A DNA stretch of 64,000 nucleotides from Candidatus Woesebacteria bacterium GW2011_GWB1_33_22 (lineage in GTDB: Bacteria > Patescibacteriota > Microgenomatia > UBA8517): the NCBI GenBank assembly GCA_000989765.1, contig LBOW01000001.1, positions 47,660 through 111,659 of the forward strand, given 5' to 3'. The position numbers and the translations under genes are program-made. Within the stretch, counting starts at the first letter, position 1, and each line of letters opens with the position of its first letter. The notes below the pieces were generated by a model that ran no database searches, was not told the origin of the DNA, and saw nothing but the letters and a program-made list of their open reading frames with translations. Positions 10,181-37,788 of the stretch are shown one piece after another.

Positions 10181-10198
10181 AATAATATTATCTCACTA

Positions 10199-16170: not shown

Positions 16171-16668
16171 ATGTTAAAGCAGTTTATTATTGTTTTTTTC
16201 ACAGTTATTTTTCTAATCTTTATTTCAAGCACGAAACCCTTTTTAGTCATAGGTTCTGATGAATATATATTTGATACTCAAATCACGCAAAAAACAACTT
16301 TAATAAATAAGATTTTTGAGAAGACAGGTTTTTTAATTCGGTTGAATAAATCTAGTAAGGCAAAATATTGGAGAAAACTTGTGGATAAAAGGTTGGCCGA
16401 ATTCAAACTTGTTGTCGAGAATGACGATAAGGGAGCTTTCGAGGAAACTTCATCAAGATATTCAACCTATGTTGCCAATTATTCAGATTATCTTTTAAAT
16501 TCAAATTTAGTTAATGAAAAAAGTATCACCAAGCAGCAATTTGATAAACATCAAGAAATCTTAAACACATTTAAGGATAAATATGAATACAATTCTGCTT
16601 GGTGGATTTTAGTTATGCACCCAATTAATACGTTGGAAATCTTCAAATTAAAGGTCGAAAAATTATGA
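16171..16668 (+). CDS. N-terminally anchored protein, DUF5667-like (second copy)
   Basis: N-terminal hydrophobic helix. FLIRLNKSSKAKYWRKLVDKRLAEFKLVVEND resembles the same pattern as 14633-15178. Confidence 0.4.
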   Translation: MLKQFIIVFFTVIFLIFISSTKPFLVIGSDEYIFDTQITQKTTLINKIFEKTGFLIRLNKSSKAKYWRKLVDKRLAEFKLVVENDDKGAFEETSSRYSTYVANYSDYLLNSNLVNEKSITKQQFDKHQEILNTFKDKYEYNSAWWILVMHPINTLEIFKLKVEKL

Positions 16669-24799: not shown

Positions 24800-25744
24800 A
24801 TGAACAAAGCTTTTTCAAAACTTTTACCAATACTTACGTGTCCTATCTGTCACAAAAATTTAAAGTTAATTAATAAAAATTTCGTGTGTACAGGAAATCA
24901 TAAATTTTCAGTCAAAAGTTATGTTCCAGTTTTTACCAAACTCAATGATTATCTTGAAATTGAATCCAATGCATGGGAGGAAGAATGGAAATCTAAAATT
25001 TCCAAAAAAGCCTTAAAAGCCTATGATATCAACATGGCAGTTTTTAAAAGTTTAGGCTATTGGGAAGAAAGTGGAAATGCTTCAAACCTAATACCAAGTA
25101 AGAAAGATAATATTGTTCTTGACTTAGGTTGCGGTAATGGTGTTTCAACGAGTAAACTCAAAGCAACACAAGCAGTAGGGTTGGATCTTTCTACTAAACA
25201 ATTGGTAAAATCCAAAAATAAATATCCAAACTGTAGTTTTATTGTAGGTGATGCAAGAAAACTTCCCTTTAAAGATTCATCATTTGATATGGTTGTTGCA
25301 ATAAATATGCTTCACCATGTCAAAAATCCTCAAGTTGTGATCAAAGAATGTTATAGAGTTTTAAAAAGTGGGGGACGTCTTTTAACTGTAGATCCGAACC
25401 TTTATAACCCTATTGGATTTATAGGTAGAGGTATGTATAAATTATTAAGACTTAAAAAGATTTTTCCAACATTTCCACAGTTTGCATTAGGAGAAGACGA
25501 ATATCAATTTTCAAAGAAAAATTATTACAATCTTTTTACCAAGTCACCATTTAAAAATTTTACGATTAGGCCACACAGACTTGAAAGAATATTTTTCTTT
25601 GCTAGTATTTTGATACCTAGTTTAATTATGTTTCCTTTCTATAAAAATATTATTTACATACTTAGTCGCATGGGAGAGGGCTTGGTTAAAATTCCACCGC
25701 TGGACAATATTTGTTATTTTTGGAAATGTGAGGCTATTAGGTGA
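24800..25744 (+). CDS. class I SAM methyltransferase with N-terminal Cys4-type zinc ribbon (RlmA-like architecture) and C-terminal hydrophobic segment
   Basis: LTCPICHKNL...CTGNHKF zinc-ribbon; VLDLGCGNGVST...FDMVVAINMLHHV...LKSGGRLL; C-terminal hydrophobic FFFASILIPSLIMFPFY. Confidence 0.75.
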   Translation: MNKAFSKLLPILTCPICHKNLKLINKNFVCTGNHKFSVKSYVPVFTKLNDYLEIESNAWEEEWKSKISKKALKAYDINMAVFKSLGYWEESGNASNLIPSKKDNIVLDLGCGNGVSTSKLKATQAVGLDLSTKQLVKSKNKYPNCSFIVGDARKLPFKDSSFDMVVAINMLHHVKNPQVVIKECYRVLKSGGRLLTVDPNLYNPIGFIGRGMYKLLRLKKIFPTFPQFALGEDEYQFSKKNYYNLFTKSPFKNFTIRPHRLERIFFFASILIPSLIMFPFYKNIIYILSRMGEGLVKIPPLDNICYFWKCEAIR

Positions 25745-27930
25745 AAAAATTGCTTTTTTGGTCAATTTTAATTCTGGCCTTTCTCTGGCGTATAATAGGG
25801 ATCTATCCTGGCTATCCGCTTCATGCAGATGAAGGAATGTCTTATTCACAAGGTATGGCCATGATAACAGAAAAAACTTTAGATGCTCATGGATATGCTT
25901 ACGCATATGCATATCCAAACCTTGTGCCAATAATAAATGCACTATTTTTTAAATTGTTTTTTATACCTTTATCTTGGTTTTGGTTTTTTTTAAATAGAAT
26001 ACCTGAACTTATTGATGGGGTTTTACAAATTATTCCATCACAACTTGAAAGAGAAAGAATCTTTCAAGTTTTTATATTAGGAAAAGGAGGAATTAATCCA
26101 CTATATTGGGGAAGATATGTGGCATCCTTTTTTGGTTTTGGTTCTGTAATTCTTTCTTATATTCTAGGAAAGAAAATATTTAGTAAAAATGTTGGATTAA
26201 TTTGGGCCTTTTTTATGGCTGCAAGTTGGCGTCTAGTTCTTGCAAGTCATTTGGATTTACCAGATATATATAATGTATTTTTTCTTATTTTGTCTATGAT
26301 TTTTTCTCTAAATATTAAAGACAAACCCACAATCAAAAATTATTTATTTGCAGGTTTATTTGCAGGTTTATCGTTTAATGTTAAGTTCCAGACGTTTTCT
26401 ATCATTATTATTGGTATTTGCTATCTATATTCAGTTTTTATACAGAAGAGACTAAACCTACCTTTTATATTAATTTCAGTTTTTTCCTTTTTATTAATTA
26501 CTTTAATAATGAATCCTTACCATCTTATCCAATGGAAGACGACTTATGAACAAATTTCATATGTTGCAATGAAATATGGAATGGGTAAGAAAAACTTATA
26601 TATTTATCCAATTTTTTATCTTTATTATTACGCTGTAGGAGTTCCTGCAGTCTGGGCATCCTTTTTGGGAATCATATACGTAATTTTTAAGAAAAAATAT
26701 TTTTATTTAATATTGATTTTGTCCCCAATTTTGTCAGGTTTGTATTTATTTGCTTATTATTCTGGAGGTGGTTTTTATACTCGTAATCTTTTAACAATTA
26801 GTACATTTGTATTACTTTTTTCTGCGTTAGGTGTAAATTTCATTTTCGAAATACTTGAGAAAATAATCAAAAATAAATTATTTTTAGTGGGTATTACTAT
26901 ACCCTTAATATTATTATTGTATTTTGATCAGATAATGGCTTCGACGTTAGTAGTATTAAATTATAAAGAAACGTGGAATATACATATTTTGGAAAACTGG
27001 TTAAGCAAAAATATTCCTACTGGTGCAAAAATAGCTGCTCACAGTAATGTTCCACTTCCCATAAAAGATGTAGTTAGACTTGATTTTGAGGATGGTATTT
27101 CTTTTTCTATCGACGAATTCAGAGAAAACGGTGCTAGCTATGCTATTGCTAATTTTGCGTGGGCCACTAACAGTTTTTATTGGTGGATGGGTGGCATACC
27201 ACAGAAATATCAACTAAATTATTTTAATAAGCCTGTTGATTTATTAGAATTTACCTATCAAGGGATTGCCTTAAGAGAGTTATCTGAATCAGCAATTTAC
27301 TTAATATCAAATTCCTGGCAAGCACCGGATACAACTTTTGTTGTAGCTAAAATTCCAGAATATAATTTAATAGATAAATCAGAGATAATTTATTATGATT
27401 TTCAAAAAGGTACCAATGGTTGGAAAAAGAGTGGTATTGCTTGGGAAGATAGCGATAATTTAAGTTGGGCAACAGAAGGTTTACTTTTAGAAGCAGAACC
27501 TGTTCTTCTTCCTTCAACAAGATGGGAGTCTCCAGTCCATAAAATTGAAGATGCAAAGGGATTTTACGTAGAGTACAAAGTCAACTCGATATCTGATACA
27601 AAGAATATAAAGGGCGCATATATCTTTGTAAGTTTTTATAAAAACCTTGAAGATGCTCAACAATCAGTAAATAGGGTTAGTGTTAGATTAAGTGAAAGAA
27701 AAGATGCAGATTCTATTTGGGAAATTAAGAATTTGATGGGTTTAATTCCCGATAATGCAAAATATATGACAATTGGTTATTCGAGTTATGACAACGTTAA
27801 AACTCGAAATATTCTAAGTTGGTTAAAAATATATAAATCAGATATAGAAGTTGATTACGGTAAAGAAAAGATTAAACCTGTTATGTTAGATATTAACGAT
27901 CTCTTCCCAAACAGTCATGGAAATTTGTAA
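25741..27930 (+). CDS. GT-C fold membrane glycosyltransferase (ArnT/PMT, GT39/83-like) with large extracytoplasmic C-terminal domain
   Basis: First-loop motif YPLHADEG (DE motif), about 12 TM helices, roughly 300-aa hydrophilic C-terminal region. Confidence 0.65.
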   Translation: MKKLLFWSILILAFLWRIIGIYPGYPLHADEGMSYSQGMAMITEKTLDAHGYAYAYAYPNLVPIINALFFKLFFIPLSWFWFFLNRIPELIDGVLQIIPSQLERERIFQVFILGKGGINPLYWGRYVASFFGFGSVILSYILGKKIFSKNVGLIWAFFMAASWRLVLASHLDLPDIYNVFFLILSMIFSLNIKDKPTIKNYLFAGLFAGLSFNVKFQTFSIIIIGICYLYSVFIQKRLNLPFILISVFSFLLITLIMNPYHLIQWKTTYEQISYVAMKYGMGKKNLYIYPIFYLYYYAVGVPAVWASFLGIIYVIFKKKYFYLILILSPILSGLYLFAYYSGGGFYTRNLLTISTFVLLFSALGVNFIFEILEKIIKNKLFLVGITIPLILLLYFDQIMASTLVVLNYKETWNIHILENWLSKNIPTGAKIAAHSNVPLPIKDVVRLDFEDGISFSIDEFRENGASYAIANFAWATNSFYWWMGGIPQKYQLNYFNKPVDLLEFTYQGIALRELSESAIYLISNSWQAPDTTFVVAKIPEYNLIDKSEIIYYDFQKGTNGWKKSGIAWEDSDNLSWATEGLLLEAEPVLLPSTRWESPVHKIEDAKGFYVEYKVNSISDTKNIKGAYIFVSFYKNLEDAQQSVNRVSVRLSERKDADSIWEIKNLMGLIPDNAKYMTIGYSSYDNVKTRNILSWLKIYKSDIEVDYGKEKIKPVMLDINDLFPNSHGNL

Positions 27931-27984: not shown

Positions 27985-28989
27985 ATGAAATATGTAGCTT
28001 TGGTAGGTTATGGTTATTGGGGAACAAACCTTTTGAGGAATTTTGTGGAGACTAAAAATTGTGAAGTTGTATATGTTTGTGATAATGATATCACTAGACT
28101 AAAACCAATTAGAAAAAGATATCCTTCAATTATTCTTACTTCGAATTATGATGAAATTCTTTTTGATAAAGAAATTGATGCAGTGATAATAGCTACTCCC
28201 ACAAGGTTTCATCACGATCTAGCTAAGAAAGCTATGGAGGCGGGAAAGGATGTTTTAATTGAAAAACCGATGGCTTTATCAATGTCCGAAGCAAAAGATT
28301 TAGTTGTGGTATCAAAAAAAACGAAGAGAATAATAATGGTTGACCATACATTTTTGTTTACACCAGCTGTAAGAAAGTTAAAAACAATTATTGATAACGG
28401 TGAAATCGGTGACATTGTTTATATTGATTCAGTAAGAACAAATCTCGGACTTTTTCAAACTGACTCCAATGTTTCCTTTGACTTAGCAACCCACGATATT
28501 GCAATACTACAATATTTATTAAATGCTAGTCCTACAGTAATTACCTCGGTGGCGGAGTCTTTCTATGGTACACAGGAAGAAATCTTTTACATTCATTTAA
28601 ATTACCCAAACAAAATAACTTGCCATTTACATGTAAGTTGGCTTTCCCCACTTAAGGTGAGGAAAATGATGATAGTTGGAACTAAAAAAATGATAGTGTA
28701 TGATGATGTTGAACAATCTGAAAAGATAAAAATTTATGATAAGGGAGTTGTGTTTGATCAAATAAGAATTGGGTATAGGTCAGGAGATGTCAATTCTCCC
28801 AATATTGATATTAAAGAGGCGTTAGGAACCATGGCATTAGAGTTTATAGATACTTTGGAAACCAGAAAAGAGCCTGTAAGTAACGGTCTTTTTGGTTTGT
28901 CAATTGTAAATATATTAGAAATGTCTAATAATTCTTCTCGAAGTAGTAAAACAATTATTATTAAAAATATAAATGACAATAAAAAATGA
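27985..28989 (+). CDS. Gfo/Idh/MocA-family NAD(P)-dependent sugar oxidoreductase (WbpB-like)
   Basis: MKYVALVGYGYWGTNLL Rossmann start; EKP motif; family length about 330 aa. Confidence 0.8.
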   Translation: MKYVALVGYGYWGTNLLRNFVETKNCEVVYVCDNDITRLKPIRKRYPSIILTSNYDEILFDKEIDAVIIATPTRFHHDLAKKAMEAGKDVLIEKPMALSMSEAKDLVVVSKKTKRIIMVDHTFLFTPAVRKLKTIIDNGEIGDIVYIDSVRTNLGLFQTDSNVSFDLATHDIAILQYLLNASPTVITSVAESFYGTQEEIFYIHLNYPNKITCHLHVSWLSPLKVRKMMIVGTKKMIVYDDVEQSEKIKIYDKGVVFDQIRIGYRSGDVNSPNIDIKEALGTMALEFIDTLETRKEPVSNGLFGLSIVNILEMSNNSSRSSKTIIIKNINDNKK

Positions 28990-29440
28990 TGTCAAAATAG
29001 GTAAAAGAGTAAAAATTTATCACAAAAATTTAGTTAATTTGTATGGTTGTAGCATAGGCGAAGATACAAAAATTGGAACTTTTGTTGAAATACAGGCGGG
29101 TGCAAAAATAGGTTCCAGATGTAAAATTTCATCACATACATTTATTTGTGAAGGAGTAACAATAGAAGACGAAGTGTTTATTGGTCATGGTGTTATGTTT
29201 ACAAATGATAAATATCCTAGGGCAGCAATCGGTGGGCATTTAAAGGAAAATGATGATTGGAAGCTCGAAAAAACAGTTATTAAAAAAGGTGCATCTGTTG
29301 GCAGTGGTGCAATTATTCTCCCTGGAATAATAGTAGGGGGAAATGCAATGGTGGGAGCCGGTTGTGTGGTCAGTAAAGATGTTCCATCAAACTCTCTAAT
29401 TTATGGAGTACCTGGTAAAATTGTTAAAAAATTAAAATGA
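28973..29440 (+). CDS. hexapeptide-repeat (left-handed beta-helix) N-acetyltransferase (WbpD/PglD-like)
   Basis: Repeated [LIV]-G-x-x-x-x hexads: IGEDTKIGTFVEIQAGAKIGSRCKISSHTFICEGVTIEDEVFIGHGV. Confidence 0.8.
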   Translation: MTIKNDVKIGKRVKIYHKNLVNLYGCSIGEDTKIGTFVEIQAGAKIGSRCKISSHTFICEGVTIEDEVFIGHGVMFTNDKYPRAAIGGHLKENDDWKLEKTVIKKGASVGSGAIILPGIIVGGNAMVGAGCVVSKDVPSNSLIYGVPGKIVKKLK

Positions 29441-31521
29441 TACCCTTTTTAGATTTAAAAAAGCAACACAACAGCATCAAAAAAGATATTGATCTTGCAG
29501 TTGGTAAAGTTCTAGAAGATTCAAATTTTATTCTTGGTTATGAAGTTGATGAATTTGAAAAAAATTTTGCTAATTATATAGGCGTTAAAAGATGTATTGG
29601 TGTTTCTACAGGAGAGTCGGCAATTTTATTGATATTAAAAGCTTTGGAAGTAGGACCTGGAGACGAAGTTATTACTGTTGCAAATACTTTTATTGCTACG
29701 GTTTTTCCAATAATTACACTTGGAGCAAAACCCGTTCTGATTGATATTGATCCTAAGACCTATCAGATGGATTTAAATATGTTGCAAAAATCAATAACAC
29801 CCAAAACTAAGGTTATACTTCCTGTACATCTGTTTGGTATACCTGCGCCGATAGCGGAAATCTTAAAAATTGCTAAGGAAAAAAATATATTTGTTGTTGA
29901 AGATGCATGTCAGGCTCATGGATCATCAATTGCTGGTAAGATGTGTGGATCTTTTGGCATAGCCTCGGCCTTCTCGTTTTATCCAGGAAAGAATCTTGGA
30001 GCTGCAGGAGATGCTGGCGCAATAACTACAAACGATGAAGATTTAGCAAATAAACTAATTGCAATGAGAAATATAGGCCAATTTGAAAAATATAAACATG
30101 ATTTATTTGGATACAACTTTAGAATGGATACGATCCAGGCCGCTTTTTTAAGTGTAAAGTTAAAACATCTTAACTTATGGAATAAAAAGAGAAGAGAAAT
30201 TGCAAATTACTATAATAAATTATTATCTGATTTACCCGTGGTTTTACCGCCAAAATTAAAAAATGGGTTGGTAGAAAATTATCATCTTTATGTAATAAAA
30301 AGCCAAAAAAGAAATGAGTTGTTGGAATTTCTGAAACAAAATGAAATTTCAACAGGTATTCATTATCCAATACCTCTTCATATGCAAAAATCACTTTCCT
30401 TTTTGTGTTATAATGAAGAAAGTTTTCCTGTAACTAAAAAATATGCAACAGAAATTTTATCACTTCCAATGTTTCCTGATATGACGAAAAACCAAGTGAA
30501 AGAAGTATCTGACAAAATTCATGAATTTTATCGAAACCTTGATAGATTGGGAAAAATTGTAATTACGGGTGGTGCTGGATTTATAGGTTCTTCAGTTGCT
30601 GATTATTTATTAGAACATTTTGCTGAAAAAATAGACAAAATTGTAGTTTTAGATAATTTTGTCAGAGGTAAAAAGGAAAATTTAATTAAGGCTCTAAAAA
30701 ATAAGAAAGTGGAACTAATTGAGGGTGATATTCGAGATAAAGAGTTGGTTGATAAGTTGATTAAAGGTGCAAATTATGTAATTCATGAGGCAGCTATCAA
30801 AAATATTTTATGCGATGAAGATCCACGGCTTTCCTTAGAAGTATTAGTTAATGGAACATTTAATGTTATGGAAGCCTGTGTTAAGCATAAAGTCAGAAAA
30901 TTGGTATTTAATTCATCAGCTTCAGTTTATGGACAACCTTTAAAAATACCAATGCAGGAAACAGATAATTATAATAATGAAGCATTTTATGGTGCAGGAA
31001 AAATTGCCAACGAACAAATGGCAAAAGCTTTTAATAAAATGTACGGCCTAAATTATGTTTGCCTACGACCTTTCAATATCTATGGACCCAGAATGGATAT
31101 ATCAGGCATATATACTGAAGTTTTTATTAGATGGTTGGACTCAATAGATAATGGAAAGGCGCCTGTTATCTTTGGAGATGGCACAAACACCTTAGACTTT
31201 GTTTACATCGAAGATGTAGTTAGGGCAACTATCACGGCATTATTAAGTGATATAAAACAAGGTTTTTATAATGTCGGATCTGGGGATGAAGTTAGCTTAA
31301 ACAAACTAGTAGAAGTACTTCTTAAATGTAATAAATCTGATCTTAAAGTAGAACACATTCAACAGATTAGAAAATCTAACTATGTAACTAGAAGAAAAGC
31401 TGATATAGTAAATGCAAAGAAAGATTTAGGGTTTATTGCCACCACCTCATTAGAAACTGGTGTTAAAAAACTTATTGAATGGAGGAAGAAAACAAAGAAA
31501 AATGAAAATACCGTTAATTAA
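29437..31521 (+). CDS. bifunctional fusion: DegT-family sugar aminotransferase (N) + NAD-dependent SDR epimerase (C, GalE/WbpP-like)
   Basis: N-domain has SFYPGKNLGAAGDAGAI (PLP Lys). C-domain starts KIVITGGAGFIGSS with a YGAGK catalytic motif and NSSASVYG (epimerase-like, no DEVYG dehydratase motif). Single uninterrupted 694-aa ORF. Confidence 0.75.
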   Translation: MIPFLDLKKQHNSIKKDIDLAVGKVLEDSNFILGYEVDEFEKNFANYIGVKRCIGVSTGESAILLILKALEVGPGDEVITVANTFIATVFPIITLGAKPVLIDIDPKTYQMDLNMLQKSITPKTKVILPVHLFGIPAPIAEILKIAKEKNIFVVEDACQAHGSSIAGKMCGSFGIASAFSFYPGKNLGAAGDAGAITTNDEDLANKLIAMRNIGQFEKYKHDLFGYNFRMDTIQAAFLSVKLKHLNLWNKKRREIANYYNKLLSDLPVVLPPKLKNGLVENYHLYVIKSQKRNELLEFLKQNEISTGIHYPIPLHMQKSLSFLCYNEESFPVTKKYATEILSLPMFPDMTKNQVKEVSDKIHEFYRNLDRLGKIVITGGAGFIGSSVADYLLEHFAEKIDKIVVLDNFVRGKKENLIKALKNKKVELIEGDIRDKELVDKLIKGANYVIHEAAIKNILCDEDPRLSLEVLVNGTFNVMEACVKHKVRKLVFNSSASVYGQPLKIPMQETDNYNNEAFYGAGKIANEQMAKAFNKMYGLNYVCLRPFNIYGPRMDISGIYTEVFIRWLDSIDNGKAPVIFGDGTNTLDFVYIEDVVRATITALLSDIKQGFYNVGSGDEVSLNKLVEVLLKCNKSDLKVEHIQQIRKSNYVTRRKADIVNAKKDLGFIATTSLETGVKKLIEWRKKTKKNENTVN

Positions 31522-32632
31522 ACCTAACTTTGACAAAAAGGAAGAAAAAGCCGTTATAGATGTATTAAGATCTGGTTGGGTCACTCAAGGACCTAAAGTT
31601 GAAGAATTTGAAAGAATGGTGGCTTCTTATGTTGGAGCAAGATATGCAGTAGCAGTTACTTCTGCAACAACAGGTTTGTTCTTAGCCCTTCATGTAAAGG
31701 GAATTGGTGCTGGAGATGAAGTTATAGTTCCGTCATTTTCCTTTATAGCAACAGCTAATGTAGTAGTTCACTCTCAAGCTAAACCCATTTTTGTTGATAT
31801 TGATCCAAATACTTTTAATATTGACCCGGAAAAAATTGAAAAGGCTATCTCTAGTAGAACAAAAGCAATTATTCCTGTAGATCAAGTTGGTTTACCATCT
31901 GATTTAGATAAGATTCATAAAATAGCCAAAGCTCATAATTTGATAGTTATTGAAGATGCGGCCTGTGCGATAGGAACTAAGTATAAAGGTAGAAAAATAG
32001 GGTCAATTAGTGAAATGACAGTTTTTTCGTTTCATCCGAGAAAGACTATAACCACGGGAGATGGAGGAATGATTACAACAAATGATAAAAAATTGGCTGA
32101 TCGATTAAAGCTTTTAAGAAACCAAGGTATGGGGGTATCCGATGTTAAAAGACATTCTTCTAAAAAAGTTGTTCAGGAGCAATATCCTGAAATAGGCTTT
32201 AATTTTAGAATGACAGATATTCAGGCTGCAATAGGAATAGAGCAAATGAAAAAGATAGATAGGATTTTGACAAAAAGAGAAAAATTAGCTAAAAGATATG
32301 ATAAGGCATTTTTGTCTTCGAAAAATATTATTCCTCCATATATTCCAAAAGGTTATGAGCACAATAGACAAAGTTATGTAGTTAGGGTAAAAAAGGAATC
32401 TAAAATTAGTAGAGATAATTTAATGCAAAAACTACTTGATTTGGGTATTGCCACAAGACGGGGTGTAATGGCATCTCATTTAGAAAAACCATATGTAAAA
32501 ATGCTTGGGAAAATTAAACTTCCCATTACGGAAGAGGCAACGGCAAATACTATGGTATTGCCACTTTTCCCCAAAATGACGATTTCTGAACAAGATTTTG
32601 TAATTAAAAACATATTGAATTTAACCCAATAG
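31502..32632 (+). CDS. DegT/DnrJ/EryC1/StrS-family sugar aminotransferase (second copy)
   Basis: MKIPLIKPNFDKKEEKAVIDV...SFHPRKTITTGDGGMI. Start chosen at the ATG at 31502; the six-frame ORF extends upstream to 31460. Confidence 0.85.
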   Translation: MKIPLIKPNFDKKEEKAVIDVLRSGWVTQGPKVEEFERMVASYVGARYAVAVTSATTGLFLALHVKGIGAGDEVIVPSFSFIATANVVVHSQAKPIFVDIDPNTFNIDPEKIEKAISSRTKAIIPVDQVGLPSDLDKIHKIAKAHNLIVIEDAACAIGTKYKGRKIGSISEMTVFSFHPRKTITTGDGGMITTNDKKLADRLKLLRNQGMGVSDVKRHSSKKVVQEQYPEIGFNFRMTDIQAAIGIEQMKKIDRILTKREKLAKRYDKAFLSSKNIIPPYIPKGYEHNRQSYVVRVKKESKISRDNLMQKLLDLGIATRRGVMASHLEKPYVKMLGKIKLPITEEATANTMVLPLFPKMTISEQDFVIKNILNLTQ

Positions 32633-32635
32633 TAA

Positions 32636-33760
32636 ATGCAAGATAGTGAATTTAATCATGGAATTGGAGATAACCCATATAATAAACACTCTTGGATTTT
32701 GGGAAATCCTAAAATTGCTAAAAATGTATGGATTGGAGCTTTTACTTTAATTGATGCTTTACACAACGAATTAGAAATTGGTGAAGGAACTGATGTTTCT
32801 TCTGGTGTACAGATATTAACTCACTCAACAGTAAAAAGAGCGATTTCTGAAAGAAGATTCATAGGCATTGAAAGTGCTCCAAGCAAAATAGGTAATTTTT
32901 GCTTTTTGGGAACTCACGCTACTATTTTAATGGGGGTAGAAATTGGTGATCATAGTGTAATCGCTGCTGGATCAGTTGTACCTCAATTTATGAAAATTCC
33001 TGCTTATTCAATGGTTGCAGGAGTCCCTGCAAAAATTATTGGTTCGAGTAAAAAACTCTTAAAAGATGTACCAGATGATTCACTTTCGATTACTATTCCT
33101 GCTTTTAATGAAGAAAAAACAATTGAAAAGGTTGTTAAAGAAGTGGTTCAAGAAGTTTCTAAATTATTTAAGGATTATGAAATACTATTAGTTAACGATG
33201 GGTCAAAAGATAAAACTGGTAAAATTATTGATTTTCTTGCTAAAAAGAATAAACATATTAAAGTTATCCATCATAAAATGAATAAAGGTTTTACTGGAGC
33301 AATGAAATCTTGCTTGTTTAACGCTCAGAAAAACTTAGTATTTTTAGCCCCCGCTGATGGACAATTTAATTTTAAGGAGCTTCATAAATTTATTGAAGCC
33401 ATAAAGGGCTATGATATGGTTATTGGGTATAAGAAAGAATCTAGTGAAGGCTTTTATAGAAAATTTAGCTCTAAATTAATTTATACTTTGTATCAAAAAC
33501 TATTTAATGTTCCTATCAGAGAAATTTCAACGGTATTTATGTGGAGAAAAAATGTAATAGATTCAATTAAGATTGAATCAGCTGATAGGGGATCAATGTT
33601 TTTATATGAATTTTTCTATAAAGCAATAAAAAATAAATTTAAATATGTTGAAATTCCAATTTCTTGGCATAAACGCCGTGGTGGTTTGGCAAAAGGAAGA
33701 AATTTAAAAAATATAATTAAAACCTTGGAGGGGATGATTAAACTAAGGTTGCAAAGTTAA
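32636..33760 (+). CDS. fusion: hexapeptide acetyltransferase (N) + glycosyltransferase family 2 (C)
   Basis: N-terminal LbH repeats (IGAFTLIDA...IGEGTDVSSGV...IGDHSVIAAGSVV), then SITIPAFNEEKTIEKV...LLVNDGSKDKTGKI (GT2). Confidence 0.7.
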   Translation: MQDSEFNHGIGDNPYNKHSWILGNPKIAKNVWIGAFTLIDALHNELEIGEGTDVSSGVQILTHSTVKRAISERRFIGIESAPSKIGNFCFLGTHATILMGVEIGDHSVIAAGSVVPQFMKIPAYSMVAGVPAKIIGSSKKLLKDVPDDSLSITIPAFNEEKTIEKVVKEVVQEVSKLFKDYEILLVNDGSKDKTGKIIDFLAKKNKHIKVIHHKMNKGFTGAMKSCLFNAQKNLVFLAPADGQFNFKELHKFIEAIKGYDMVIGYKKESSEGFYRKFSSKLIYTLYQKLFNVPIREISTVFMWRKNVIDSIKIESADRGSMFLYEFFYKAIKNKFKYVEIPISWHKRRGGLAKGRNLKNIIKTLEGMIKLRLQS

Positions 33761-34662
33761 TTTGAATTTGTTAATTTTTGTAATTCATTAACGATATTTT
33801 TATTTTTAGGTTTTCTAAATTTTTCTAGTGTTTTTATTTGTGTACGTCTAAAGTCGACTTTATATTCTTTATATAAAAAAGCCATTTCTTTCCTTAATAA
33901 TTCTATAGTCATATATTGGCCGTTTCTTTCTGAAAGTGCTCTTTTTGCAAGATCTTCATTTATCCAAACCCCACCAGTGTATCTTTGAGGTTGAGTTTTT
34001 GCAAATCCTATTATTTCATTTGTATCTTTTATTGTGATTTCACCGGAAAGATTCAATTTTGGCTGACCTAAATTATTTGCTACATCGGCAATAATTTGTT
34101 CAAGACTTAGTTTTTCTATTTCTGTAATGGTTTTTTTCGATATGCCTATAATATCTTCAACTGGAGGAATAAAATCCATGGTTCTTGAATCCACTCCGCA
34201 TCTTTTCAAAAACCTAGAAGCAATTTGATTACTAAGCATATATCTAAATTTAAAAAGTTTCCCAATATCATGAATAAGAAGACGAGATTTAATTAACCAC
34301 GGATTTAAATCCGGACCACCATTTTGTTTAATAACTTCTTCAATAGTTTCAGCATATTCTGCAGACATAATTGGATGTGCCCAGAAAATTGGTGAGACTT
34401 TTGTGTCACAATCAGTGGCTAAAAGTTTTAGTAACTTGGCTCCTACTTCAAAGTCTTTTTCAGTAAATTCTTTTTTATGATCTGTAAAAGCTGACCCCTT
34501 GAGGATAACTTTGGCAGGTACAACAAATTTTGCAAATCTATCATGTACTTGGGTAGCTTCCTCTCTAAGAAGATTATCACGTAATTTTTTTTTGTCCGGA
34601 GGCAGTTTTGAGATTATTTCTCGTTCGGTCAAAAAGTATGTATCAGCTATCTCATTTTTCAT
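33757..34662 (-). CDS. HD-domain (metal-dependent phosphohydrolase superfamily) protein
   Basis: WAHPIM ... LLIHDIGK (the HD motif); soluble, 301 aa. Confidence 0.55.
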   Translation of the reverse strand: MKNEIADTYFLTEREIISKLPPDKKKLRDNLLREEATQVHDRFAKFVVPAKVILKGSAFTDHKKEFTEKDFEVGAKLLKLLATDCDTKVSPIFWAHPIMSAEYAETIEEVIKQNGGPDLNPWLIKSRLLIHDIGKLFKFRYMLSNQIASRFLKRCGVDSRTMDFIPPVEDIIGISKKTITEIEKLSLEQIIADVANNLGQPKLNLSGEITIKDTNEIIGFAKTQPQRYTGGVWINEDLAKRALSERNGQYMTIELLRKEMAFLYKEYKVDFRRTQIKTLEKFRKPKNKNIVNELQKLTNSN

Positions 34663-34736: not shown

Positions 34737-35093
34737 ATGAATATCTATACAATTGGGATTGTCTTAGTTGGAATGATTATCCTTCTTATTACTGCTGAGG
34801 TAATGAGTCATTATTTTAAAATTCACTCAGATAAATTTTACGTTATTTTTCATTTTGCAGGTGGTGCATTATCTTTCCTTTTATTTTTAAATTTATTTAA
34901 TAATAAACTTCTTGCTTTTTTCTTAGTTTTAGTAATTGGTATACTTTGGGAAATACATGAGTGGATATTATGGAAATTATATATTAAAACAAAATTATAT
35001 AAACCAAAGAGTAAGGATACAATTTGTGATTTGGTAATGGATATTTCCGGAGCGTTAATATTTTATGTTATTGAAATTTTACACATATTTTAA
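34737..35093 (+). CDS. small 3-4 TM membrane protein (GtrA-like size/topology)
   Basis: 118 aa with 3-4 hydrophobic helices, in a locus with GtrB-like enzymes. No motif-level proof. Confidence 0.4.
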   Translation: MNIYTIGIVLVGMIILLITAEVMSHYFKIHSDKFYVIFHFAGGALSFLLFLNLFNNKLLAFFLVLVIGILWEIHEWILWKLYIKTKLYKPKSKDTICDLVMDISGALIFYVIEILHIF

Positions 35094-37788
35094 AAACCTT
35101 TTAAAAAACCATTTTTGGGTTTTGTTAATTCTTGTTGTTTTTATCTCTTATGGCCAGATGCTTTGGATGCAACCGTGGGAAGATGATAACGCCTTGTTTG
35201 TTAAACTGGCAAGCATAGAGGATAGGGTTGGCTTTTTTGGTAAAGGCCCCCTAGGAGAAGGAGTTTATAGATTTGCAGCTGTCCCGTTTATATTAATATA
35301 TAAAATTTTCGGTACGTTTATACCAGCTTACTTTGCATTGCTTTTAATTCTTTATGTTTTAGCTACCTTAACAGTGTATAAAGTACTATCTAAAATTATT
35401 GGCGAGACTGGAGGGAGAGTTGTTGGTTTTATTTATGCTTGTGGTTATATTACCTCTGACAGTTTTTGGAGAATGGCAAATAGTGCAACCACAAGCATAA
35501 GTATAATACTTATTAGTTTGTTTACATTATTTTGTTGGCAATATTATAAGCAACAAAAAATTAAGTATTATTTATTGTCACTTTTTTTCTTCCTGATAGC
35601 TACAATAATTGCTGTTTCAAGAACTCACTATCTTGTTGCTGTGGCAATAATTTTTGAATTTACCCTTTTTACCTTTAGAAATTTCCCCAAAAATGTCATA
35701 AAGTTGGTTTTACGCCTAATTCCATTTTTGTATATTTTTTACAATTTAGTTTTATCTTCCAGTGATTCAAGGACCGATGGAGTAGGAAATTATATTATTT
35801 CAATCCTAAAAGGAAAATTGTATTTGACCTATGGATTTTTTTCATCAATTTCAAATTTATTTATTCCGGATTATTTAATTAATTTTATTTTTGATATTCA
35901 AAATAAGTTGACAGTGTTTTTACAAGCCAAAATTCCTATTGCTTATTTATTATTATTTGGTGTTTTTACAATTTTAATATTGTTATCTTTTAAAGGTTTA
36001 AAAAACAAAAAGTATCTTACAATTTTATTTTATTTTATACTTTTAATATGGTTCTTTGTTTCCAAAAAAGTTTTCTTGGAATCATCCTTAGGATTAGGAG
36101 AAAAAGGTATTTTTGTTGGAATACTTGGTGGAGTTATCCTAATTTTGTTAAGTGCATTTTTTATTATTCTTCGTAAAAATAGACAGATATTTTTATTTTT
36201 TATAAGCTGGCTTGTTATTAATTTGTTGGCTTATACTTCTTACTTTCCTACGGTTACCTATGAAACAATTAACCGTTATTTAGCTCACTCCTTTTTTTCT
36301 CTAACATGCGTTTTAGGTATATTATATATTTCACTACCAGACAAAAGTAAAATAAATTTTTTGGTCAAATTAATAATAATTTTATTTGGCATTGTTAATT
36401 TAATAAACGCTGTAATTTATCAAAATAAAATTCTTTATACAAGAAGTTTTCCAGTTAAAAGTTTTTATCAACAACTGTCTATTTTGCTACCTGAAATTAA
36501 GAAAGACGATGTTTTGTATTTTGATGTTTCAAACGATTCACAACGCTTATTTCGTGATGCAATTTCAGCGGCGATGATACCAGACACTGGATCGTTTGGT
36601 TGGCGTTATCAAATATATAGATATGATTTTAGTTTAGAAACAGATTTTTCAAGTTTATATAAAAGAATAACAGAGGAAAAAGTAAAAATAGATAACATCC
36701 ATGCTTTTTGGTATTCCAAAGGTATTCTTACTGATATATCCAAAAATGTGCAAGATTATTTCTTAAATAAAAATTCATATTATTATTCTCAATATAGTTT
36801 AGAAAAAACAAGTGAAGCGATTATAAACAGAAACAAGGATAAAACATTGTGGTTTCAGCCAGAACTTATTGCCGACATCAAATCTCCAATTGAAAGTTAT
36901 GCACCCATTGAATGTGGTATCACTTTTGTGGCCAATCCACTTAAGACTAATAAATTACTTTTTCCACTATATTGGGAATTATCTAATGACAAAACAAAAA
37001 ATGTATTTAATGACCCAGTACAAAAGAAACTTGCCTTACTATATAAGAAAGATATGGATAATTTTGTTAAAAATTCCATTTTTAGTACTAGTAGCCAATG
37101 GTCTGATCGAGTAACTGAAAATTTATATGACAATGATATTGGTACTGTATGGCAATCTGATAGAGTACTCTGGCAAGATAAAAGAGAATATCTAGAAGTT
37201 TTGTTACCTACTGTTCAAAACATAAATAGAATAGTTTGGACACCACCTTCATATCAAGCTAGCGTACCTACAAATTATGAAATTGAAATATCACTTGATG
37301 GAAAGAGTTGGAGAAAAATTAAAACAATAACTAATAAAGAAATAACCAGTCAGATTCAACAAGAGGTAAAATTTGAACCAATAACAGCAAAATACGTAAA
37401 GATGATAATAACTGAAACCCTAGGAGGCGATTCCCCGATGATATCCGAGTTTCGTGTAATACCTAGTAGCTTATCAACGCTTGATTTAAAAAGTGTAGAC
37501 ACATATCTTGAAAGGCCATTTATATTTATTGAAAATGAACAAATTTTTAATAACACGTTAACAAGTTTTGGACAAACAGGCGTTGCTCAATTGTATTACT
37601 TAGCAAATAAAGATAATGTTTGGATTAATACAAGTAAATTAAATATTGGAATTATTTATGATGGAAAAGCTCATTACTATAAAGTTAATTTTCCTGCAGG
37701 TGGGACTAGAATTGAAAATATCAAAGTTTCAAACTTTGCAGTTCCTGGTACAATAACTTTATATAACATCGAATGCAAAACAAACTGA
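35065..37788 (+). CDS. large polytopic membrane protein with C-terminal F5/8 type C (discoidin) domain; candidate GT-C glycosyltransferase (tandem paralog A)
   Basis: N-terminal motif QPWEDDNALFVKL, about 13 TM helices. C-terminal SQWSDRVTENLYDNDIGTVWQSD...YLEVLL...AKYVKMIITET...ISEFRV matches the discoidin/F5_F8_type_C pattern. Confidence 0.7.
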   Translation: MLLKFYTYFKNLLKNHFWVLLILVVFISYGQMLWMQPWEDDNALFVKLASIEDRVGFFGKGPLGEGVYRFAAVPFILIYKIFGTFIPAYFALLLILYVLATLTVYKVLSKIIGETGGRVVGFIYACGYITSDSFWRMANSATTSISIILISLFTLFCWQYYKQQKIKYYLLSLFFFLIATIIAVSRTHYLVAVAIIFEFTLFTFRNFPKNVIKLVLRLIPFLYIFYNLVLSSSDSRTDGVGNYIISILKGKLYLTYGFFSSISNLFIPDYLINFIFDIQNKLTVFLQAKIPIAYLLLFGVFTILILLSFKGLKNKKYLTILFYFILLIWFFVSKKVFLESSLGLGEKGIFVGILGGVILILLSAFFIILRKNRQIFLFFISWLVINLLAYTSYFPTVTYETINRYLAHSFFSLTCVLGILYISLPDKSKINFLVKLIIILFGIVNLINAVIYQNKILYTRSFPVKSFYQQLSILLPEIKKDDVLYFDVSNDSQRLFRDAISAAMIPDTGSFGWRYQIYRYDFSLETDFSSLYKRITEEKVKIDNIHAFWYSKGILTDISKNVQDYFLNKNSYYYSQYSLEKTSEAIINRNKDKTLWFQPELIADIKSPIESYAPIECGITFVANPLKTNKLLFPLYWELSNDKTKNVFNDPVQKKLALLYKKDMDNFVKNSIFSTSSQWSDRVTENLYDNDIGTVWQSDRVLWQDKREYLEVLLPTVQNINRIVWTPPSYQASVPTNYEIEISLDGKSWRKIKTITNKEITSQIQQEVKFEPITAKYVKMIITETLGGDSPMISEFRVIPSSLSTLDLKSVDTYLERPFIFIENEQIFNNTLTSFGQTGVAQLYYLANKDNVWINTSKLNIGIIYDGKAHYYKVNFPAGGTRIENIKVSNFAVPGTITLYNIECKTN

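Follow-up and report, generated by a model that had tools for sequence, protein, structure and literature searches.

A Microgenomates operon with two enzyme fusions is predicted to supply a lipid-linked N-acetylated diamino sugar

The operon described here, found in a 64-kb stretch of bacterial DNA (the whole of which we call the window), is best explained as the Microgenomates (candidate phyla radiation, CPR) form of a cassette that also occurs in other phyla, whose two enzyme triads would build one diacetamido sugar that is loaded on polyprenyl phosphate and used outside; to this explanation as a whole we assign a probability of about 55%. The operon represents an uncharacterised variant of known pathways and not a new kind of system, and the evidence supports the proposal, made in a preliminary description of this DNA, that its product is an N-acetylated diamino sugar. 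In the proposed pathway, the first gene product (g1) would oxidise C3 of a common UDP-hexose, which is most likely UDP-GlcNAc because the window encodes no nucleotidyltransferase or 6-dehydrogenase. The DegT domain of g3 would transaminate the 3-keto sugar, and g2, a small left-handed beta-helix (LbH) protein, would acetylate the C3 amine. The SDR domain of g3 would then supply a second keto group, at C4, for transamination by the ArnB-like DegT protein g4 and acetylation of the resulting amine by the LbH half of g5, to yield a 3,4-diacetamido sugar (2,3,4-triacetamido-2,3,4-trideoxyhexose if the start is UDP-GlcNAc). On the cytoplasmic side, the GT2 half of g5 would put the finished sugar on polyprenyl phosphate; the resulting lipid-linked monosaccharide would be flipped across the membrane, and an adjacent GT-C (PMT_2), possibly with two discoidin-domain proteins, would transfer the sugar to a surface acceptor.

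Open reading frame calls in the 64-kb window recovered all five genes and both fusions where the preliminary description had placed them, tightly packed and all on the + strand: g1 (27985-28989), g2 (28973-29440), g3 (29437-31521, one protein of 694 aa), g4 (31460/31502-32632) and g5 (32636-33760, one protein of 374 aa). The description of all five genes as overlapping was slightly overstated. Three of the four junctions do overlap, namely g1/g2 by 17 nt, g2/g3 by 4 nt and g3/g4 by 20 nt (taking as the start of g4 the ATG at 31502, which matches the orthologues in alignment), but g4 and g5 are separated by a gap of 3 nt. These tightly packed genes form a genuine operon. Likewise, the two fusions, which had both been called unusual, are genuine and not assembly errors, though only one of them is rare: the joining of DegT to a GalE-like SDR in g3 was found again in five independent protein clusters (69-93% identity), while the LbH-GT2 fusion of g5 recurs in >110 clusters and constitutes a large Microgenomates family. 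In the 694-aa protein the fusion had been noted with its C-terminal half left unnamed; this half proves to be an SDR of the extended type that carries a GalE-like motif.

The first triad comprises g1, g2 and the N-terminal domain of g3 (g3N). The product of g1 (27985..28989, +; Pfam GFO_IDH_MocA, 4.5e-28) is a predicted NAD-dependent sugar-nucleotide dehydrogenase of the Gfo/Idh/MocA family that would act at C3, like WbpB, GnnA and the archaeal UDP-GlcNAc 3-dehydrogenase. It aligns over its full length with the NCBIfam model of the latter (NF040723) at 177 bits, short of the model cut-off of 450 bits, as indeed all specific NCBIfam matches of the operon genes fall below curated cut-offs. Inositol 2-dehydrogenase, the identity named beforehand as speaking against this assignment, follows only as the next-best family at 93 bits. 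No entry named WbpB or WlbA occurs among the best 60 PDB matches of g1, which is nearer to the archaeal model and to GnnA (7bvj). For g2 (28973..29440, +; Pfam Hexapep, 2e-21), a predicted N-acetyltransferase of the 3-amino group (WlbB/QdtC/FdtD class), the closest solved structures are FdtD-like 4mzu (108 bits), 7s43, WlbB 3mqg (81 bits) and QdtC 3fs8. The domain g3N (aa 1-370; 29437..30546, +; Pfam DegT, 3.6e-114) is a PLP-dependent sugar aminotransferase, predicted to be of the C3 type, with its PLP lysine at K185 in the motif FSFYPGK; its closest PDB matches are 7b0d, QdtB (327 bits), 5u1z, DesV and WbpE (253 bits). Fusions elsewhere join parts of this same triad: the halves of an LbH-DegT fusion (P0008) are 56% identical to g2 and 63% to g3N, and those of a Gfo-DegT fusion (P0033) are 37% identical to g1, over its full length, and 51% to g3N. 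These comparisons support the assignment of g1, g3N and g2 as a triad for oxidation, transamination and N-acetylation at C3, with the regiochemistry, as for the second triad, predicted from the best homologues. The preliminary description had identified the three as WbpB, WbpE and WbpD, which is right as to the kind of triad, but the proteins are not Wbp equivalogs: they resemble Wbp proteins less than they do the archaeal UDP-GlcNAc 3-dehydrogenase and enzymes of the QdtB/FdtD type.

The SDR domain of g3, the ArnB-like g4 and the N-terminal domain of g5 (g5N) make up the second triad. A second aminotransferase had been proposed at 31502, and g4 (31502..32632, +) indeed matches Pfam DegT at 1.9e-121 and is assigned to the PLP-dependent C4 type (ArnB/perosamine synthase/PseC-like), with K181 as PLP lysine. 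Its closest PDB matches are ArnB 1mdo (263 bits) and perosamine synthase (262 bits), and in NCBIfam PseC scores 353 bits and ArnB 333 bits, both below cut-off. The second DegT proteins of clusters from other phyla are 51-57% identical to g4 versus 33-34% to g3N. The domain g5N (aa 1-145; 32636..33070, +; Pfam Hexapep, 7.5e-11) is an LbH N-acetyltransferase predicted to act on the second amino group, in which H63 and H106 are invariant among 110 sequences. Its closest solved relative is the N-acetyltransferase Pcryo_0619 of Psychrobacter cryohalolentis K5 (8vr6/8vr7/8vrm; 79 bits, 38% identity, rmsd 1.1-1.7 A). At one related locus (L013) a free-standing orthologue of 145 aa (60% identity) adjoins the orthologues of the SDR and of the second DegT.

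Related loci keep these genes together. Within the Microgenomates, the order Gfo-LbH-DegT-SDR-DegT-LbH/GT2 is retained in L001, L002, L005 and L007, the SDR has moved upstream in L006 and L009, and L008 holds a variant without Gfo and the first LbH. Outside the CPR, orthologues occur together in L010, L011, L012 (an Acidobacteriota MAG, in which the cassette adjoins Bac_transf and Wzx) and L013, which lacks the first DegT. Identities to the window are 40-43% for Gfo, 51-60% for the first LbH, 42-49% and 51-57% for the first and second DegT, and 50-54% for the SDR, so that, with identities of 40-60%, five of the six activities are orthologous in these other phyla. L005 also carries a formyltransferase at the point of N-acylation before lipid loading, and the second triad of L011 includes an LbH that is PglD-like.

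The second amination hinges on the SDR domain (aa 371-694 of g3; 30547..31521, +; Pfam Epimerase, 7e-52), for which a role in C4 redox chemistry is predicted. In relatives it is a gene of its own that overlaps the end of the first DegT gene. Its catalytic residues are GalE-like (S494-A495-S496, Y518 and K522, with Glu561 invariant in the family), the motif S-A-S being an epimerase signature (S-A-T in GalE); the closest sequences are UDP-GlcNAc/Glc 4-epimerases (6dnt at 172 bits), and Foldseek ranks 1-22 are all C4 epimerases (TM 0.83-0.90). The domain lacks the Asp/Glu or Asp/Lys pair of known 4,6-dehydratases and decarboxylases, and comparisons with NCBIfam and PDB place it outside both the Polysacc_synt_2/PglF-type and the RmlB-type dehydratases. 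No GalE-like enzyme characterised so far is known to us to release a 4-keto hexose as an aminotransferase substrate. Gene context points the other way. In L007 and L008 the slot between both DegT genes, and in L006 the slot just upstream of the Gfo gene, is filled by a non-orthologous SDR (30-40% identity to that of the window); those of L006 and L007 score best on dTDP-glucose 4,6-dehydratase (183 and 222 bits), and all three, together with the upstream SDR of L009, carry the motif S/T-x-E. Because such dehydratase-like SDRs fill the slot in relatives, its job would be the making of a 4-keto sugar. The domain is thus predicted to be either a supplier of the 4-keto sugar, as context suggests, or a 4-epimerase, as motif and fold suggest.

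If it were a true epimerase, the operon could serve two sugars. The first triad would make UDP-GlcNAc3NAc, the fused SDR would turn UDP-GlcNAc3NAc (or UDP-GlcNAc) into the galacto form for a cytoplasmic glycosyltransferase, and g4 with the LbH-GT2 protein would aminate, acetylate and lipid-load a 4-keto sugar from a dehydratase encoded elsewhere in the genome. This would agree with the epimerase-like residues and relatives, with the separation of the genes in L010 and L012 into two contiguous blocks (Gfo-LbH-DegT and LbH-SDR-DegT), and with an island in which many other glycosyltransferases could use a second donor. We nevertheless consider it unlikely, since cassettes of the SSASVYG type (window, L001, L002, L005, L010-L013) have no other plausible generator of a keto sugar beside the second DegT, the other SDRs of the window being one GDP-fucose-synthase-like protein and one without the Tyr/Lys residues. 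In addition, sister cassettes carry a dehydratase-like SDR in or beside the SDR position, and both the fusion of the first DegT to the SDR and the orthology of five genes across phyla suit one pathway better. We therefore favour the single diacetamido sugar.

The predicted fate of this sugar follows from the C-terminal domain of g5 (aa 146-374; 33071..33760, +; Pfam Glycos_transf_2, 3e-24), a putative polyprenyl-phosphate glycosyltransferase of the ArnC/GtrB/DPMS type. The acetyltransferase fused to a GT2 that had been proposed at 32636 is borne out by the Hexapep and Glycos_transf_2 matches within one 374-aa protein, both halves of which are strongly conserved among 110 sequences. PDB sequence matches of the GT2 half are GtrB sll0501, ArnC and DPMS, and its AF2 model (pLDDT 89.9) shows the fold of polyprenyl-phosphate glycosyltransferases: Foldseek ranks 1-16 are ArnC, DPMS and GtrB, with other GT2 enzymes appearing only from rank 36. 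D188, D192, D241 and R304 are invariant in the 110 sequences, while W303 is invariant in an alignment of 20 sequences and at least 90% conserved in the 110. That the domain is instead an ordinary glycan-elongating glycosyltransferase, whose GT-C neighbours have nothing to do with the sugar, seems to us quite improbable. Such a role would fit the lack of transmembrane helices (hydropathy shows no hydrophobic segment, whereas ArnC and GtrB have C-terminal membrane helices), the degenerate D-x-D motif (a single invariant Asp, D241 in A-P-A/G-D-G, where ArnC and GtrB have D-x-D), and partial NCBIfam matches to PgaC and TuaG that score like the match to ArnC. However, some polyprenyl-phosphate mannose synthases (Ppm1, DPM1) likewise lack TM helices, polyprenyl-phosphate glycosyltransferases account for every full-domain alignment and for all of the top 16 structural matches, other GT2 enzymes scoring about 1,000-fold worse, and GT-C genes recur beside the cassette in distant relatives. 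The type of GT2 and the GT-C neighbours shift the reading from an O-antigen-like sugar to a lipid-carrier donor for extracytoplasmic glycosylation.

The flanking genes would provide the remaining steps. The + strand unit begins with a SAM-dependent methyltransferase with an N-terminal Zn-ribbon (24800..25744, +; Pfam Methyltransf_11, 1.8e-26, and Zn_ribbon_RlmA), which overlaps by 4 nt the start of a GT-C membrane glycosyltransferase of the PMT_2/ArnT-like superfamily (25741..27930, +; Pfam PMT_2, 3.9e-08) directly upstream of g1; L001, L002 and L007 also have a methyltransferase directly upstream of the GT-C. The GT-C, with about 10 hydrophobic segments in its N-terminal 400 aa and a soluble C-terminal part of about 330 aa, is proposed as the extracytoplasmic transferase that uses the lipid-linked sugar. 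Orthologues (63% identical) lie at the same place in L001 and L002, and PMT_2 genes adjoin the cassette also in L006, L007, L011 and L013. Downstream of g5, a membrane protein of 118 aa (34737..35093, +; about four hydrophobic segments by hydropathy, no Pfam family) might perhaps be the flippase; clearly similar proteins occur in two related loci, L001 and L002, in the latter immediately behind the LbH-GT2 gene, and L007 has an EamA transporter at this position. It is followed by two paralogous proteins of 907 and 889 aa (35065..40442, +) with 11-13 TM segments and a C-terminal F5/8 type C (discoidin) domain (Pfam F5_F8_type_C, 9.7e-15 and 3.2e-06), which share an invariant W-x-D-D-N loop motif and are conserved downstream of the cassette in L001, L002, L005, L006 and L007. 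Their similarity to PMT_2 GT-Cs in hhalign (probability 82%, E 1e-5, 107 columns) makes it probable that they work outside the membrane, as GT-C-like transferases or polymerases.

The preliminary description had also linked to the operon an AsnB-type amidotransferase (56097-57920, -; identified by Pfam), and predicted an acetamidino or amidated diacetamido sugar. Under such a model a WbpB/D/E-type pathway would lead to a UDP-2,3-diacetamido-2,3-dideoxy uronic or hexose sugar, which this enzyme would then convert. In certain pathways for O-antigens and flagellin glycans, AsnB-family enzymes (WbpS, WbpG, PseA) are responsible for amides or acetamidino groups. Although the gene is present in the same glycan island as a triad of the WbpB/E/D kind, neither the link nor the predicted product finds support, and we regard this model as very improbable. 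The gene and the operon are separated by 22 kb and lie on opposite strands, the AsnB gene being paired with a different GT-C in a unit of two genes, and no Asn_synthase was found within 7-10 kb of the cassette in 11 of 11 related loci. Neither a UDP-GlcNAc 6-dehydrogenase (UDPG_MGDP_dh, WbpA/WbpO-type) nor a 2-epimerase was found anywhere in the 64 kb. A WbpA-dependent route through a uronic acid is therefore unsupported, as is an amidated uronate, and given the missing 6-dehydrogenase there is no carboxyl group to amidate. The model also takes no account of the SDR, of an aminotransferase of the C4 type or of a GT2 with polyprenyl-phosphate character.

Parts of the proposed pathway are familiar from several known systems. 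The C3 logic and its three families (Gfo/Idh/MocA, DegT and small LbH) are the same as in the WbpB/WbpE/WbpD (WlbA/WlbC/WlbB), archaeal NF040723 and GnnA/GnnB routes. The Wbp pathway, which leads to UDP-2,3-diacetamido-2,3-dideoxy-glucuronic acid, has in addition the WbpA 6-dehydrogenase and the WbpI 2-epimerase, both absent from the operon, and g3N and g2 score higher on QdtB/FdtD-type enzymes than on WbpE/WlbB, with all scores below equivalog cut-offs. The order SDR, C4 aminotransferase and LbH N-acetyltransferase is that of PglF/PglE/PglD (UDP-diNAcBac), but the SDR is of another type than PglF and RmlB, and g5N is not PglD-like. The O-antigen enzymes of P. cryohalolentis K5 (PDB 8vr2-8vr7, 8vrm) include, besides the best solved relative of g5N, matches to g4 (8vr3/8vr5, 207 bits) and to the SDR (8vr2, 100 bits). 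That pathway passes through a uronic acid and ends in a pentose by way of an ArnA-like oxidative decarboxylase; with no 6-dehydrogenase, and with an SDR that is missing the decarboxylase Glu, the operon is expected to make a hexose instead. The Psychrobacter product serves as a UDP-sugar in O-antigen assembly, whereas that of the operon is proposed to be carried on polyprenyl phosphate. The Psychrobacter sugar is a natural 2,3,4-triacetamido sugar, 2,3,4-triacetamido-2,3,4-trideoxy-L-arabinose (PMC8040287), and the only one with acetamido groups at C2, C3 and C4 that we found in the literature.

For the later steps, a GT2 lipid-phosphate synthase, a flippase and a GT-C form a known three-component concept (PMC11127046). 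In such systems (GtrA/GtrB/Gtr*, GT136 pentofuranose, CsbB/YfhO), as here, the genes for a polyprenyl-phosphate sugar synthase of family GT2, for a transporter or small membrane protein, and for a GT-C are grouped; the donor sugars there are simple ones that come straight from UDP-Glc, UDP-GlcNAc or PRPP, whereas the operon adds a tailoring pathway of six activities, the last enzyme of which is fused to the synthase, and its candidate flippase has no recognisable family. The Arn (PmrHFIJKLM) pathway, which places 4-amino-4-deoxy-L-arabinose on lipid A, has the same order of C4 SDR, ArnB-like 4-aminotransferase, N-acylation, ArnC-type GT2 acting on undecaprenyl phosphate, flippase and PMT_2/ArnT-type GT-C. 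The operon differs in that its SDR is not a decarboxylase, in its extra C3 triad and in the absence of an ArnD-type deacylase. As the host probably belongs to the CPR and has no lipid A, the acceptor must also be a different one. In both systems the N-acyl group is added immediately before lipid loading, in Arn through formylation by ArnA ahead of ArnC, but ArnA fuses the formyltransferase to the SDR while the operon fuses the LbH acetyltransferase to the GT2. With a GT2 fold like that of ArnC, DPMS and GtrB and a GT-C directly upstream, the operon resembles the cytoplasmic half of an Arn/Gtr-like system for lipid-carrier glycosylation, which it would probably supply with the 3,4-diacetamido sugar.

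Five forward-strand genes, g1 to g5, occupy positions 27985-33760 exactly where the preliminary description had placed them, and its observation of a five-gene operon with two enzyme fusions is confirmed. According to Pfam, g1 (27985-28989, 334 aa) belongs to GFO_IDH_MocA, g2 (28973-29440, 155 aa) is a hexapeptide (LbH) protein, g3 (29437-31521, 694 aa) combines DegT (residues 13-361) with an NAD-dependent epimerase/dehydratase (residues 374-614, hereafter the SDR domain), g4 (31502-32632 from its ATG, 376 aa) is a second DegT protein, and g5 (32636-33760, 374 aa) joins a hexapeptide region (N-terminal ~145 aa) to Glycos_transf_2 (residues 151-291). The further claim that all five genes overlap holds for three junctions (17, 4 and 20 nt) but fails for g4 and g5, which are separated by a 3-nt gap. 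The operon starts not at g1 but with two upstream genes on the same strand, a methyltransferase gene (24800-25744) and, overlapping it by 4 nt, the gene of a 729-aa PMT_2/GT-C membrane protein (25741-27930), after which g1 begins 54 nt later. A scan for promoters and terminators was uninformative in this AT-rich DNA, with fewer sites than in shuffled sequence. Following g5, a convergent reverse-strand ORF (33757-34662, 301 aa), whose stop overlaps that of g5 by 4 nt, shows a weak HD signature (LLIHDIGK; Pfam HD E 0.034). This ORF is missing from the same place in the related locus L002, other convergent ORFs stand there in L001 and L005, and it looks like a variable insertion between the operon and the membrane-protein genes downstream. 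Beyond it the forward-strand genes continue: first comes a four-TM protein of 118 aa, then a pair of polytopic proteins of ~900 aa, both of which end in F5/8 type C domains.

The reading of g1, the DegT half of g3 (g3N) and g2 as a WbpB/WbpE/WbpD triad acting at C3 proved right in kind, as judged by family matches. The best specific NCBIfam model for g1 is NF040723, the archaeal UDP-N-acetylglucosamine 3-dehydrogenase (177 bits, end-to-end; cut-off 450), and the second family, inositol 2-dehydrogenase, which likewise stays under its curated cut-off, reaches only 93 bits; the inositol dehydrogenase that would have undone the triad is thus rejected. None of the top 60 PDB matches of g1 is named WbpB or WlbA, and among them is 7bvj (6e-11), which we take to be GnnA-like. 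For g3N the best PDB matches are the C3 aminotransferases 7b0d, QdtB (327 bits), 5u1z, DesV and WbpE (253 bits), and it has the features expected of a DegT-family C3 aminotransferase, including the PLP lysine, K185, within FSFYPGK. Similarly, g2 is closest to the 3-amino-sugar N-acetyltransferases FdtD-like 4mzu, 7s43, WlbB 3mqg and QdtC, and aligns with WlbB over residues 6-150 (80.7 bits) as a small LbH protein of the WlbB/WbpD class. Independent fusions elsewhere link the three activities: LbH-DegT proteins match g2 and g3N with their respective halves at 56% and 63% identity, and the halves of a Gfo-DegT protein match g1 and g3N at 37% and 51%.

Within the DegT clade of g3N, further fusions (P0006-P0016, P0033, P0068) comprise LbH-DegT proteins of 519-536 aa, a Gfo-DegT protein of 691 aa, a DegT-formyltransferase of 702 aa and a DegT-methyltransferase-like protein of 683 aa; the clade seems unusually prone to fusion with pathway partners. 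The three enzymes are nevertheless not Wbp equivalogs, in that non-nested ORFs of at least 100 aa in the 64-kb window include neither a 6-dehydrogenase (UDPG_MGDP_dh, as in WbpA) nor a 2-epimerase domain (Epimerase_2, as in WbpI). UDP-GlcNAc is therefore a likelier substrate for the first triad than the corresponding uronic acid.

A second triad, predicted to act at C4, consists of the SDR domain, g4 and the LbH half of g5 (g5N). The PDB entries nearest to g4 are C4 aminotransferases, with ArnB best (262.8 bits) and perosamine synthase tied (262 bits); NCBIfam gives PseC at 353 bits (cut-off 423.5) and ArnB at 333 bits (cut-off 631). For PDB entries 8vr2-8vr5 we assume the enzyme functions suggested by their titles. 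The nearest solved relative of g5N is the N-acetyltransferase Pcryo_0619 of Psychrobacter cryohalolentis K5 (38% identity; rmsd 1.1-1.7 A for the AF2 model), a strain whose O-antigen contains 2,3,4-triacetamido-2,3,4-trideoxy-L-arabinose (PMC8040287). In the literature searched for other triamino or triacetamido sugars, this Psychrobacter case was the single one, the remaining hits being explosives chemistry.

The two fusions differ in their distribution. LbH-GT2 proteins form a large family, with over 110 clusters at 50-93% identity and strong conservation of both halves; H63, H106, D188, D192, D241 and R304 of g5 are invariant in an alignment of 110 sequences, in which W303 reaches at least 90% conservation. 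Fusions of the DegT-SDR kind are rare: in a set of 5.8 billion proteins, those that cover the full length fall into only five clusters (69-93% identity). A GTDB genome scan with g3 returned no close relative, only one further such fusion (38% identical) in a Bacteroidetes MAG and one irrelevant SDR. More distant Microgenomates have the first aminotransferase (DegT1) and the SDR as separate genes with overlapping ends, whereas the junction in g3 is seamless (...EFYRNLDRLGK followed directly by IVITGGAGFIGS), which argues that the fusion arose recently from adjacent genes; the same features, with its recurrence in five clusters, dismiss a frameshift artefact. Candidatus Woesebacteria and Microgenomates MAGs contain homologues, at 55-62% identity, of both g5 and the SDR domain; the closest relatives reach 90-93%. 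With two DUF5667 proteins in the window, these homologues make a Microgenomates (CPR/Patescibacteria) genome the most likely source. One homologous protein, P0144 (539 aa, from a 3.7-kb ENA contig), matches the C-terminal 64% of g5 at 99% identity and has HisKA/HATPase_c domains where g5 has its LbH region; the chimera is probably an artefact of assembly or gene calling, but it places a near-identical organism in a public ENA sample.

The cassette recurs in other genomes. Among the 11 related loci, the order Gfo-LbH-DegT-SDR-DegT-LbH/GT2 is retained in four from Microgenomates (L001, L002, L005 and L007), while the SDR is displaced upstream in L006 and L009. In the variant L008, LuxC/LuxE-type genes take the place of Gfo and of the small first acetyltransferase (LbH1). 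There, AMP-binding, Fe-ADH, LuxE and LuxC genes (L008 85-5705) lie upstream of DegT-SDR-DegT-LbH/GT2, which may point to another kind of N-acyl group (fatty?) or another route of oxidation. Homologues of the window-type SDR at 50-55% identity also occur well outside the candidate phyla radiation (CPR), and all four non-CPR contexts opened hold the same gene set, L013 without DegT1. L010 reads Gfo-LbH-DegT-LbH-SDR-DegT; L011 shares this set, its second LbH being PglD-like, and has a PMT_2 gene close by; in L012, an Acidobacteriota MAG, the cassette is flanked by genes for a Bac_transf initiating transferase and Wzx; and the marine L013 carries a free-standing 145-aa LbH that is 60% identical to g5N. 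In these four loci reciprocal identity to the window amounts to 40-43% for Gfo, 51-60% for LbH1, 42-49% for DegT1, 50-54% for the SDR and 51-57% for the second aminotransferase (DegT2), against only 33-40% for DegT1/DegT2 cross-pairs. By sequence comparison, five of the six activities are orthologous across phyla, and the second acyltransferase alone varies. No description of this cassette was found in the literature searched.

By sequence and modelled structure, the SDR domain is predicted to be a C4 epimerase. As in the GalE/WbpP type, it has S494-A495-S496 (S-A-T in GalE), Y518 and K522 and no dehydratase acid/base residues; its best PDB match is the UDP-GlcNAc 4-epimerase 6dnt (172 bits), and a Foldseek search with the model (pLDDT 92) placed 4-epimerases at all of ranks 1-22 (TM 0.83-0.90) and dehydratases from rank 23. 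E561 (in Y-T-E-V) is invariant in the family and aligned with Ala209 of WbpP, a residue that lines the sugar pocket of that enzyme. Automatic pipelines label the SSASVYG...YTEV family UDP-glucose 4-epimerase, and that the domain is a true 4-epimerase is the main alternative to the reading proposed here. Gene context argues against epimerisation as the net reaction, because in the SSASVYG-type cassettes examined no other enzyme able to make the keto substrate of DegT2 was found. The window, L001, L002 and L005 have SDRs without the acid/base pair that follows the catalytic Ser/Thr in known 4,6-dehydratases and decarboxylases (T-D-E, T-S-E, T-D-K). In L006-L009, the SDRs that occupy the equivalent slot or adjoin the cassette do have such a motif (S-S-E or T-S-E). 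In L007 and L008 a non-orthologous S-S-E-bearing SDR (39-40% identity to that of the window) sits between the two DegT genes, and in L006 and L009 an S-S-E or T-S-E SDR (30% identity) lies just upstream of the Gfo gene; dTDP-glucose 4,6-dehydratase is the best-scoring model for the proteins of L006 and L007 (183 and 222 bits). We put at about even odds that this slot serves to supply a 4-keto sugar, and that the window-type SDR does so without dehydration, leading to a 4-amino sugar that keeps its C6-OH.

An ArnA/UXS-type decarboxylase is rejected, since the domain lacks the Glu (S-A-S, not T-S-E), scores 46 bits with the ArnA model and has no uronate source in the window. Two other SDRs of the window fail as a missing dehydratase, the one at 22307-23248 being GDP-fucose-synthase-like and the one at 9182-10180 being apparently without the catalytic Tyr/Lys and having its own DegT partner. 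The latter (+, in the gene pair 9182-11296) has LegB/RmlB-type dehydratases as its top-scoring models; by eye it reads V-N-G-I-N-C-N-A-G-E for P-Y-G-x-S-K-x-x-x-E and T-R-N for T-D-E, Tyr and Lys apparently missing, and the adjacent DegT (10199-11296) is PseC-like.

Tentatively, and with a probability of roughly 0.3, we propose that SSASVYG...YTEV SDRs are non-dehydrating UDP-sugar C4 dehydrogenases which, with DegT2, an LbH enzyme and the C3 triad, make UDP-2,3,4-triacetamido-2,3,4-trideoxyhexose, lipid-phosphate-linked in Microgenomates. The C4 dehydrogenase, the ArnB-like aminotransferase and the acetyltransferase would install a 4-acetamido group and keep the C6-OH, and joined to the C3 triad they would constitute a widespread multi-phylum route, not previously described, to a UDP-sugar that to our knowledge has not yet been reported. 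In Microgenomates, where the last enzyme is fused to a putative polyprenyl-phosphate glycosyltransferase, the product would be the first lipid-phosphate-linked triacetamido sugar donor.

A different product, an amidated or acetamidino sugar, had been predicted from the AsnB-type gene at 56097-57920. This gene passes the TIGR01536 asparagine synthase cut-off (448 vs 267 bits) and is similar to EPS-associated amidotransferases. It lies 22 kb from the operon, on the other strand and directly after a different GT-C gene; no Asn_synthase gene occurs within 7-10 kb of the cassette in any of the 11 related loci, and the window holds no uronic acid source. Nothing here supports the proposed link or acetamidino formation, though the latter is conceivable in principle; the earlier interpretation as a whole is partly supported, its amino-sugar triad being of the Wbp kind.

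The operon is embedded in a glycan-assembly island: the window (~29% GC) holds many GT2 and GT4 enzymes, methyltransferases, two Wzx-like flippases, a carbamoyltransferase, a GDP-fucose-synthase-like SDR and the AsnB-type amidotransferase. Pfam identifies four PMT/PMT_2 proteins (12550-14598; 25741-27930; 40446-42527, -; 57922-59424, -), and about eight polytopic proteins with 6-13 TM segments have no Pfam family (e.g. 23249-24772, 45832-47496, 47480-50455, 50833-52170, 52335-54836 and 61767-63440), so that the density of GT-C-like proteins is unusually high. At 21084-24772 (-) three genes form a divergent module. Their products are a polytopic membrane protein of 507 aa that belongs to no recognised class, an SDR resembling GDP-L-fucose synthase (267 bits) and a GT2 extended by 170 aa at its N terminus; comparable modules occupy the equivalent position in L001 and L002, and this one may be a second module for a lipid-linked sugar. 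Ten kb downstream of the operon, a carbamoyltransferase gene is followed by that of a 244-aa LbH protein (43392-45835, +). In L013 the cassette itself contains a carbamoyltransferase, 33% identical to that of the window and flanked by the SDR and the g5N-like LbH (L013 8107-9798); O-carbamoylation would need a free hydroxyl, e.g. the C6-OH. Small DUF5667 proteins with an N-terminal hydrophobic segment (14633-15178 and 16171-16668, +) are found amid glycosyltransferase genes, and a 1179-aa protein upstream of the L005 cassette has weak DUF5667 and GT-C_AftD matches.

The features of most interest are the two-triad cassette shared across phyla, an epimerase-like SDR where a generator of a 4-keto sugar is needed, and the acetyltransferase-glycosyltransferase fusion. 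We are aware of no experimental knowledge of CPR envelope glycans, yet all 64 kb of this window are given over to them, and the products encoded there include four or more GT-C enzymes along with many other membrane proteins that are GT-C-like. The operon, with its six soluble activities, offers a testable biochemical entry point. If the SDR step is as proposed, a family routinely annotated as UDP-glucose 4-epimerase would gain a new reaction type, a new tri-N-acetylated hexose would come to light, and the triacetamido donor would provide a handle on CPR surface glycans; if the enzymes act as their ordinary homologues do, this is one more amino-sugar cluster.

Several lines of evidence point to lipid-carrier loading as the next step. 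The PDB sequence matches of the GT2 half of g5 are GtrB (sll0501), ArnC and DPMS, and the same three enzymes make up its best 16 Foldseek hits (E 1e-14 to 4e-11), other GT2 enzymes following from rank 36 (E of at least 1e-8). In contrast to ArnC and GtrB, only one Asp of its D-x-D motif is invariant; the NCBIfam ArnC model scores 67 bits (cut-off 529). Upstream on the same strand, the PMT_2 GT-C is conserved in synteny and resembles ArnT at the superfamily level only, with no PDB sequence match; GT-C genes also adjoin the cassette in L006, L007, L011 and L013. For the flippase there is only a candidate, the 118-aa four-TM protein after g5, whose position is taken by an EamA transporter in L007; EamA/SMR (ArnE/ArnF) and Polysacc_deac_1 (ArnD) domains are absent from the operon, and Pfam at E<=1 returned nothing for this unclassified protein or eight other polytopic membrane proteins. 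The two discoidin-domain (F5/8 type C) membrane proteins share an invariant W-x-D-D-N loop motif and show weak profile similarity to PMT_2 (hhalign probability 82%, E 1e-5).

All of the chemistry considered here draws on homology and gene context, from which the operon of this uncultivated lineage is best described as an amino-sugar tailoring pathway coupled to lipid-carrier glycosylation of an Arn/Gtr-like type. Three-component systems such as Gtr and Arn combine a lipid-phosphate sugar synthase, a flippase and a GT-C (PMC11127046). The GT2 half, the candidate flippase and the GT-C would together fit this layout, and of them the synthase-like GT2 and the GT-C are both present and syntenic. 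Unlike ArnC and GtrB, which have transmembrane helices, the GT2 half of g5 has none. In the Arn pathway of polymyxin resistance the amino sugar must be N-formylated before ArnC accepts it; here the last N-acetyltransferase is fused to the synthase, which by analogy suggests that N-acylation gates lipid-carrier loading. In L005 a formyltransferase gene (Formyl_trans_N/C, 317 aa; L005 8046-8999) lies between the second DegT gene and the LbH-GT2 gene, an arrangement that recalls the formyltransferase domain of ArnA acting before ArnC.
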